A DNA stretch of 64,000 bases from Escherichia phage ECO111 5-P: sequence record OR844765. One strand, written 5' to 3'. The position numbers and the translations under genes are program-made. This document shows positions 22,900 to 23,563 of the stretch, piece by piece. The notes below the pieces were generated by a model. That model did no database searches. It was given only the letters and a program-made list of their open reading frames with translations, and was not told where the DNA came from. How positions within the stretch are numbered: the first letter of the stretch is position 1; each line of letters opens with the position of its first letter.

Positions 22900-23112
22900 A
22901 TGTTAAAGAAATTAATTCGGAAATTGTTGGGTACAGAAATGGTTGAAGTTACTTATCGTGTGACTGATGTAAGCCCATGGGCCCGAAATGTTGAACCGTA
23001 TACTAAAACAATTAAAATGCTCAAATATGATGGTGGATTATCTATCAAAGACCGTCTACCAGCTTATGGTCATTGGGCTGATATTGAAATTATAAGTGTT
23101 AAAGATGTCTGA
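22900..23112 (+). CDS. hypothetical protein
   Basis: 70-aa ORF, tightly packed. Confidence 0.45.
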   Translation: MLKKLIRKLLGTEMVEVTYRVTDVSPWARNVEPYTKTIKMLKYDGGLSIKDRLPAYGHWADIEIISVKDV

Positions 23113-23563
23113 ATTAGAAATAAGAAGCAATTTTAAGTGGCCGTCATGTGCATTAAGTAATTTTGCCCGGTGGCCTTTCGTTATGGATGGTATTCAATTC
23201 GGAGGTCTTGAAGGATTTCTCCAAGGATGTAAGGTGAAAAATGTTGAACAACAAAGACGTATATTTGGGTTGTCTGGATCGGCTGCACAGCAAGCTGGAA
23301 GGTCTTATGCAAGAGCTCAGGACCGTGGGACTCTCTTCTGGTTAGGAGTTCCATTTTCAAGATACTCCGAAGCGTGGAAAGAATTATACACAAATGCATA
23401 TTTTGAAGCCGCGATCCAAAACAAGGGGTTTCGTGATGCCTTACAAGCCTCTAAAGGAAAAATTTTGAAGCACAGCATGGCTAGTGGTCTAACAAAAGAT
23501 GATACAATACTAACTGAAGCTGAATTTATTGATGTGTTAAACCTATTAAGAGACTCTTTATGA
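23105..23563 (+). CDS. NADAR (YbiA-like) domain protein
   Basis: 152 aa from ATG 23105; LSNFARWPFVMDGIQFGGLEGFLQGCKV resembles the YbiA/NADAR core (FSNF..WP...DG..F...EH.FQA.K) recalled from E. coli YbiA. Confidence 0.6.
   Translation: MSELEIRSNFKWPSCALSNFARWPFVMDGIQFGGLEGFLQGCKVKNVEQQRRIFGLSGSAAQQAGRSYARAQDRGTLFWLGVPFSRYSEAWKELYTNAYFEAAIQNKGFRDALQASKGKILKHSMASGLTKDDTILTEAEFIDVLNLLRDSL

Follow-up and report, generated by a model that had tools for sequence, protein, structure and literature searches.

Guanine ADP-ribosylation by DarT1 toxins is reversed by NADAR proteins (Schuller et al., Mol Cell 2023), and a classification of these proteins by De Souza and Aravind, as it is cited in PMC11543638, already took in the phage gp30.3 group. 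The product of T4 gene 30.3 belongs to that group. Through phage crosses, Johannesman et al. [quoted passage not shown] T4 AdfN is both necessary and sufficient against DarTG1, and the resistance has been shown during infection for the T4 and T2 alleles (PMC11825919). Deletion of adfN renders T4 and T2 approximately 10^4-fold more sensitive to DarTG1, and RB69 is fully rescued by ectopic AdfN (PMC11257639, PMC11825919). The purified T4 protein strips ADP-ribose from DarT1-modified DNA; no AdfN-DarT1 interaction was seen in a two-hybrid assay, and DarTG2 is not countered by T4 AdfN (PMC11257639, PMC11825919).

Hydrolysis of guanine-linked ADP-ribose by the T4 protein has been reported in three studies (PMC11257639, PMC11125620, PMC12945103). 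In the second of these, published in Toxins in 2024, the protein hydrolysed guanosine-ADPr and not thymidine-ADPr in vitro (PMC11125620); in the third, from 2026, guanosine-ADPr was again hydrolysed and cytidine-ADPr was not removed (PMC12945103). The behaviour of AdfN in cells is more restricted—T4 AdfN gives uninfected E. coli no protection against DarT1 (PMC11125620), and phages outside the Tevenvirinae are rescued only weakly (PMC11825919), so activity in cells appears to depend on a further factor. Full activity is accordingly described as confined to T-even infection, and an additional T-even factor has been proposed (PMC11825919). An earlier idea, according to which AdfN would act specifically on hydroxymethylated DNA (preprint PMC11257639), was withdrawn in PMC11825919 because T4-GT7, which has unmodified DNA, still depends on AdfN.

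Several other NADARs provide useful points of comparison. DarG1 antitoxins, the DarT1-associated NADARs of the BC4488 family (E. coli C7; Geobacter/Trichlorobacter lovleyi, PDB 8BAT) carry a basic N-terminal extension of two strands and a helix that is proposed to bind DNA, and they neutralise DarT1 in uninfected cells, which T4 AdfN does not. E. coli YbiA (PDB 2B3W, PF08719, YbiA subfamily) is a housekeeping N-glycosidase of riboflavin intermediates encoded in a LexA-controlled operon; it removes cytidine-ADPr, whereas the T4 enzyme does not (PMC11125620, PMC12945103). The NADAR of Phytophthora nicotianae (PDB 8BAU, an ADP-ribose complex) is a eukaryotic protein with N-terminal and internal insertions and a last-strand glutamate (E125), and has no link to phage defence (PMC11543638). 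Finally, NADAR-Bas32 and NADAR-Bas60, from Markadamsvirinae and Vequintavirinae, are phage-encoded orphans that counter DarTG1 by guanine de-ADP-ribosylation (PMC11257639), as is predicted for the gene described here; in contrast to it, they belong to other, independently acquired NADAR clades, and they work without the context of T-even infection, even as antitoxins in uninfected cells (PMC11257639).

The window considered here is a 64,000-nucleotide stretch of Escherichia phage ECO111 5-P (sequence record OR844765), and all positions given below refer to it unless another locus is named. Its gene at 23105-23563 (+ strand) is, on the combined evidence of protein identity, profile match and gene order, the ortholog of T4 gp30.3 (AdfN), and we refer to it as adfN. 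The two proteins are of equal length (152 aa) and identical at 146 of 152 positions (96%; T4 accession NP_049816), and the window protein matches the Pfam family PF08010 (Phage_30_3) over the entire model (positions 1-138 of 138) with a score of 228.6 bits (cutoff 36, E=2.5e-68), as well as PHROG 652. The six substitutions from window to T4—K11R, R22Q, S59L, E89P, I120V, and M125I—all fall outside the invariant columns of a 54-member family alignment. The gene order 30.4, 30.3, 30.2, 30.1, DNA ligase, alt.1, alt is the same in the window as in T4, and the Pfam matches of the neighbours agree with the T4 annotation; the 30.1 homolog is a DUF3045 protein and the ligase an ATP-dependent DNA ligase. 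When the 3-kb stretch around adfN was searched, 751 phage records matched, mostly from Escherichia and Shigella phages and with a best identity of 96.4%; by these matches, the window comes from a Tequatrovirus-like phage.

The DNA ligase gene (24651-26144, + strand, 497 aa) encodes a protein with 64% identity to T4 gp30 and several indels; set against the 96% of AdfN, encoded approximately 1 kb upstream, this marks a sharp mosaic boundary between neighbours.

The reading frame of adfN runs from an ATG at 23105 to a TGA at 23561-23563, in agreement with the 152-aa frame and the motif reported in the initial annotation of the window. The open reading frame listing offers a longer alternative that begins with GTG at 23096; this start is unlikely, as neither the T4 annotation nor the alignment of 54 homologs extends upstream of the ATG. 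Both ends of the gene overlap with their neighbours, in the same slot and with the same overlapping start and stop codons as in T4. Upstream, the adfN start codon lies within ATGTCTGA (23105-23112, + strand), where it overlaps the stop of the 30.4 homolog (22900-23112); downstream, an ATGA (23560-23563, + strand) combines the start of the 30.2 homolog with the adfN stop. As read from the nucleotides, the overlap with the 30.4 homolog suggests translational coupling. A promoter and terminator scan of 20200-28900 returned 30 promoter sites against 26 expected.

Compared with T4 gene 30.3, adfN shows 40 nucleotide differences, 30 of which are at third codon positions, and a pN/pS of 0.09 with no more than six amino-acid changes. 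A tblastn search with the window protein found matches in 1510 phage records, including T4-like phages of Klebsiella, Aeromonas, Acinetobacter, and Vibrio at approximately 40% identity. The third-position bias, the low pN/pS, and the breadth of the family together argue that the frame is coding, and the substitution pattern identifies adfN as a real gene under strong purifying selection.

T4 annotation also includes 30.3', a 75-aa internal out-of-frame ORF, and its counterpart in the window lies at 23241-23345 (+ strand), in the +1 frame inside adfN. It begins at the same ATG as in T4 and runs into a stop after 34 codons; the comparison with T4 gives a pN/pS of 1.09 in this frame, versus 0.11 for the adfN frame across the same stretch. 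We considered 30.3' as a second product of the locus and rejected it: given the interruption and the contrast in pN/pS, it is probably not a real gene.

Placing the window protein in the NADAR superfamily requires more than single-sequence searches. An hmmscan against Pfam at E<=10 returned PF08010 alone and no match to PF08719 (NADAR), a search of NCBIfam gave no match, and phmmer against PDB sequences gave none either; the case for membership is therefore built on profile-profile comparison and the fold. For this we used two alignments, one of 54 diverse gp30.3-family homologs and one of 31 YbiA-family proteins. The gp30.3-family profile finds E. coli YbiA (2B3W) in an hmmsearch of the PDB (E=0.0033), with a match that covers precisely the motif that had been singled out from the sequence, and hhalign of the two alignments gives a probability of 97.3% (E=2e-11, 126 columns). 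Individually, 20 of the 54 family members match PF08719, with a best E of 1.5e-7. By the profile check that had been proposed for the gene, the lack of PF08719 in the direct Pfam scan of the window protein would nominally speak against NADAR; the more sensitive family-level comparisons overturn this.

An AlphaFold2 model built on the gp30.3-family alignment is confident (pLDDT 93.2, pTM 0.89), and Foldseek places it with YbiA (2b3w, E=3.2e-5) and the Phytophthora protein (8bau, probability 1.00); the model has the alpha-helical core flanked by two small beta-sheets that defines the NADAR/YbiA fold. From the profile-profile match, the family matches, and this fold, we conclude that the window protein belongs to the NADAR superfamily, as the initial annotation had claimed, with the glutamate and lysine of the active site conserved. 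The missing direct Pfam NADAR match is also what could be said for regarding the motif as a chance likeness in a non-functional or non-coding ORF. Against that stand the pN/pS of 0.09 and the 30 third-position differences of 40, the homologs in 1510 phage records, and the confident fold and profile matches, and we regard coincidence as having a negligible chance of being correct.

The NADAR core motif spans residues 17-44, LSNFARWPFVMDGIQFGGLEGFLQGCKV, encoded at 23153-23236 (+ strand), and aligns to YbiA residues 29-56 by both hmmsearch and hhalign. Ten columns within it are invariant in the family: L17, S18, N19, F20, F25, E36, G37, F38, Q40, and K43. In the hhalign alignment, the phage residues L17-S-N-F-A...E36-G-F-L-Q-G-C-K43 stand opposite YbiA F29-S-N-F-A...E48-H-Y-F-Q-A-Q-K55, which bears out the parallel with YbiA drawn in the initial annotation. 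The catalytic glutamate is Glu36 (codon GAA, 23210-23212, + strand) and the catalytic lysine Lys43 (codon AAG, 23231-23233, + strand); both are invariant in 54 of 54 family members and align with YbiA E48 and K55. They correspond to the glutamate and lysine that contact the distal ribose and pyrophosphate in characterised NADARs, namely E43 and K50 in PnNADAR and E88 and K95 in E. coli C7. In T4 AdfN, E36A abolishes counter-defence and leaves the protein inactive in vitro, and K43A likewise abolishes counter-defence (PMC11257639).

The residue after the catalytic glutamate differs between the families—G37 is invariant in all 54 gp30.3-family members, whereas the YbiA family has an almost invariant H49—so the replacement of the usual Glu-His by Glu-Gly was correctly observed. 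An active NADAR, that of Phytophthora, has Glu-Gln at this spot; the histidine is therefore a trait of the YbiA subfamily with no catalytic requirement, and Glu-Gly is no defect.

A second distinguishing residue is found near the end of the fold. Phage NADARs have a histidine where YbiA has a glutamate and DarG1 an aspartate (PMC11543638; PMC11125620), and in the window protein this hallmark is His123 (codon CAC, 23471-23473, + strand), invariant in 54 of 54 members and located in the predicted strand 120-123, the last beta-strand. The hhalign alignment pairs H123 with YbiA H126, the residue following E125, beside an alignment gap, so its register relative to the YbiA glutamate is uncertain by one residue. 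The C-terminal alpha-helix is intact (residues 138-151, predicted; 23516-23557, + strand), and residues 126-152 are identical to those of T4. This end of the protein matters for function: the RB69 allele has lost its last 15 residues by frameshift and is non-functional (PMC11257639).

With these residues in hand, the window protein can be compared with the systems introduced above. It shares with T4 AdfN its length, its 96% identity, E36, K43, H123, and the C-terminal helix, and differs in the six substitutions, none at an invariant position, and in the interruption of 30.3'. It lies outside the YbiA subfamily: identity to YbiA is approximately 20%, the position aligned with the invariant last-strand glutamate E125 is K122, which is variable in the phage family and is followed by the invariant histidine, and the first catalytic site reads LEGFLQGCK rather than SEHYFQAQK. 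Nor is it a member of the DarG1 group, although it is predicted to work like DarG1. The gene stands as an orphan, with no toxin gene beside it; the protein is a 152-aa core whose first strand starts from residue 3, without the N-terminal extension of DarG1, and it carries His rather than Asp.

The reading that we favour, with a probability of roughly 93%, is that the gene encodes AdfN, a phage-type NADAR (T4 gp30.3) that clears phage DNA of the ADP-ribose which DarT1 puts on its guanines. In a cell with the DarTG1 system, DarT1 would place ADP-ribose on guanines in the DNA of an infecting T4-like phage and replication would be blocked; AdfN, predicted to be a minimal single-domain N-glycosidase, would cut the bond between ribose and guanine, restore unmodified DNA, and so allow replication to resume. 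The target in this scheme would be the modified DNA, with no binding of the toxin involved. The evidence from the window consists of orthology to T4 gp30.3, the NADAR fold, and the conservation of E36, K43, H123, and the C-terminal helix. From the 96% identity and the lack of any change at an invariant position, we infer that this allele would behave as T4 AdfN does. The suggestion that a NADAR here might counter a DarT-type defence has thus already been demonstrated experimentally for a 96%-identical protein (PMC11825919, PMC11125620); the guess was right, and the biology was already known from T4.

According to Iyer et al. (2022), low-molecular-weight ADPr derivatives might be the preferred substrates of phage NADARs (PMC9503650), and the main substrate could in principle be such soluble compounds—immune signals, by-products of RNA repair, or riboflavin intermediates—rather than DNA. 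The fold and motifs held in common with YbiA, an N-glycosidase of riboflavin intermediates, point the same way, as does the location of the gene among tRNA genes in Aeromonas and Ralstonia phages. We nevertheless give this account a slim chance, given that the T4 ortholog is active on ADP-ribosylated DNA in vitro and is required and sufficient in vivo against a toxin that modifies DNA. Furthermore, the phage family is without the conserved last-strand glutamate of YbiA and constitutes a separate clade whose closest neighbours are the DarG1 antitoxins. Soluble ADPr derivatives may be hydrolysed as a side activity of AdfN, which is unneeded to explain the phenotype.

The surroundings of adfN raise a different question, namely whether the protein erases the phage's own ADP-ribosylation by removing the marks left by Alt (or ModA/ModB) on RNA polymerase and other host proteins. 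The initial annotation had noted the proximity to Alt, and this holds: a gene for a 695-aa Alt-like ADP-ribosyltransferase (26388-28475, + strand; Pfam PF03496 ADPrib_exo_Tox, E=5.9e-28) lies approximately 2.8 kb downstream of adfN on the same strand, after 30.2, 30.1, DNA ligase, and alt.1. An order of 30.3, a 30.2-like ORF, ligase, and ADP-ribosyltransferase recurs in an Acinetobacter phage, and T4-like NADARs have been described as encoded together with ARTs among the early genes (Iyer et al., PMC9503650). The chemistry is hard to reconcile with such a role, however: Alt-type enzymes act on protein side chains, whereas every demonstrated NADAR substrate is an N-glycosidic linkage to a base, and the T4 enzyme removes guanine-ADPr and not thymidine- or cytidine-ADPr (PMC11125620, PMC12945103). 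The deletion phenotype is also fully explained by DarTG1. The linkage itself is lost in part of the relatives—among six distant phage loci compared with 3-kb flanks, an ART occurs near the NADAR gene in the Acinetobacter locus only, and the loci from Aeromonas, Klebsiella, Vibrio, Brevundimonas, and Ralstonia phages have none annotated within 3 kb. We therefore consider it very improbable that AdfN serves mainly to edit Alt-type marks, and the corresponding proposal finds no support in the window or in the only demonstrated substrate of the T4 enzyme, guanine-ADPr.

Removal of DarT1 marks from DNA remains the preferred function, and it is for this function that the T-even factor mentioned above would be needed. 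That factor might be encoded in the 30.x block, whose genes may be translationally coupled, the obvious candidate being the HAD-like homolog of gp30.2; we view this as a long shot. The 30.2 homolog (23560-24375, + strand) encodes 271 aa, is listed as 'unknown function' (PHROG 420), and starts MKPTILTDIDGVCL. This start reads as motif I of HAD phosphatases, which makes the protein putatively HAD-like; its match to Pfam HAD_2 is weak and below cutoff (E=0.013), and one deposited phage record calls it HAD-like. Homologs of 30.2 occur in 1438 phage records, close to the 1510 for adfN. Tequatrovirus and one Acinetobacter phage have the two genes side by side, an arrangement absent from the loci that we examined in Aeromonas, Klebsiella, Vibrio, Brevundimonas, and Ralstonia phages. 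We therefore rejected a functional tie between 30.2 and adfN as a supported claim; since the genes are unlinked in the T4-like phages of Klebsiella and Aeromonas, genomic context lends no real support to 30.2 as the factor.

As one more intact allele of a family that about 1500 sequenced phages carry, the window gene adds nothing beyond the published work on T4. It does have practical value: the predicted resistance of this phage to DarTG1 is useful when the host range of phage therapy candidates is considered, and the proper label for the gene is adfN, DNA ADP-ribosylglycohydrolase, anti-DarTG1 counter-defence protein. Among the matches listed, nearly all deposited T4-like genomes label adfN as 'hypothetical protein'; in one Klebsiella phage record (PQ657790.1) the matching region is labelled 'anti-CBASS protein acb1', apparently by mis-annotation.

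Members of the gp30.3 family also occur outside T4-like phages, at 31-36% identity, in Brevundimonas phage Kikimora (locus L007, 3001-3471) and Ralstonia phage RSP15 (locus L008, 2995-3513); one of these two carriers is a 312-kb Dolichocephalovirinae siphophage and the other an Ackermannviridae phage. The family gene is found inside a tRNA gene cluster in the phages of Aeromonas and Ralstonia. Back in the window, the rightward block that contains adfN ends at a strong terminator-like hairpin (28834-28856, + strand), whose 10-bp stem, AAAGGGAGAC...GTCTCCCTTT, leads into a T-run; a DUF5498 (alt.-3-like) gene directly precedes the hairpin, and tail genes of the opposite orientation come after it.
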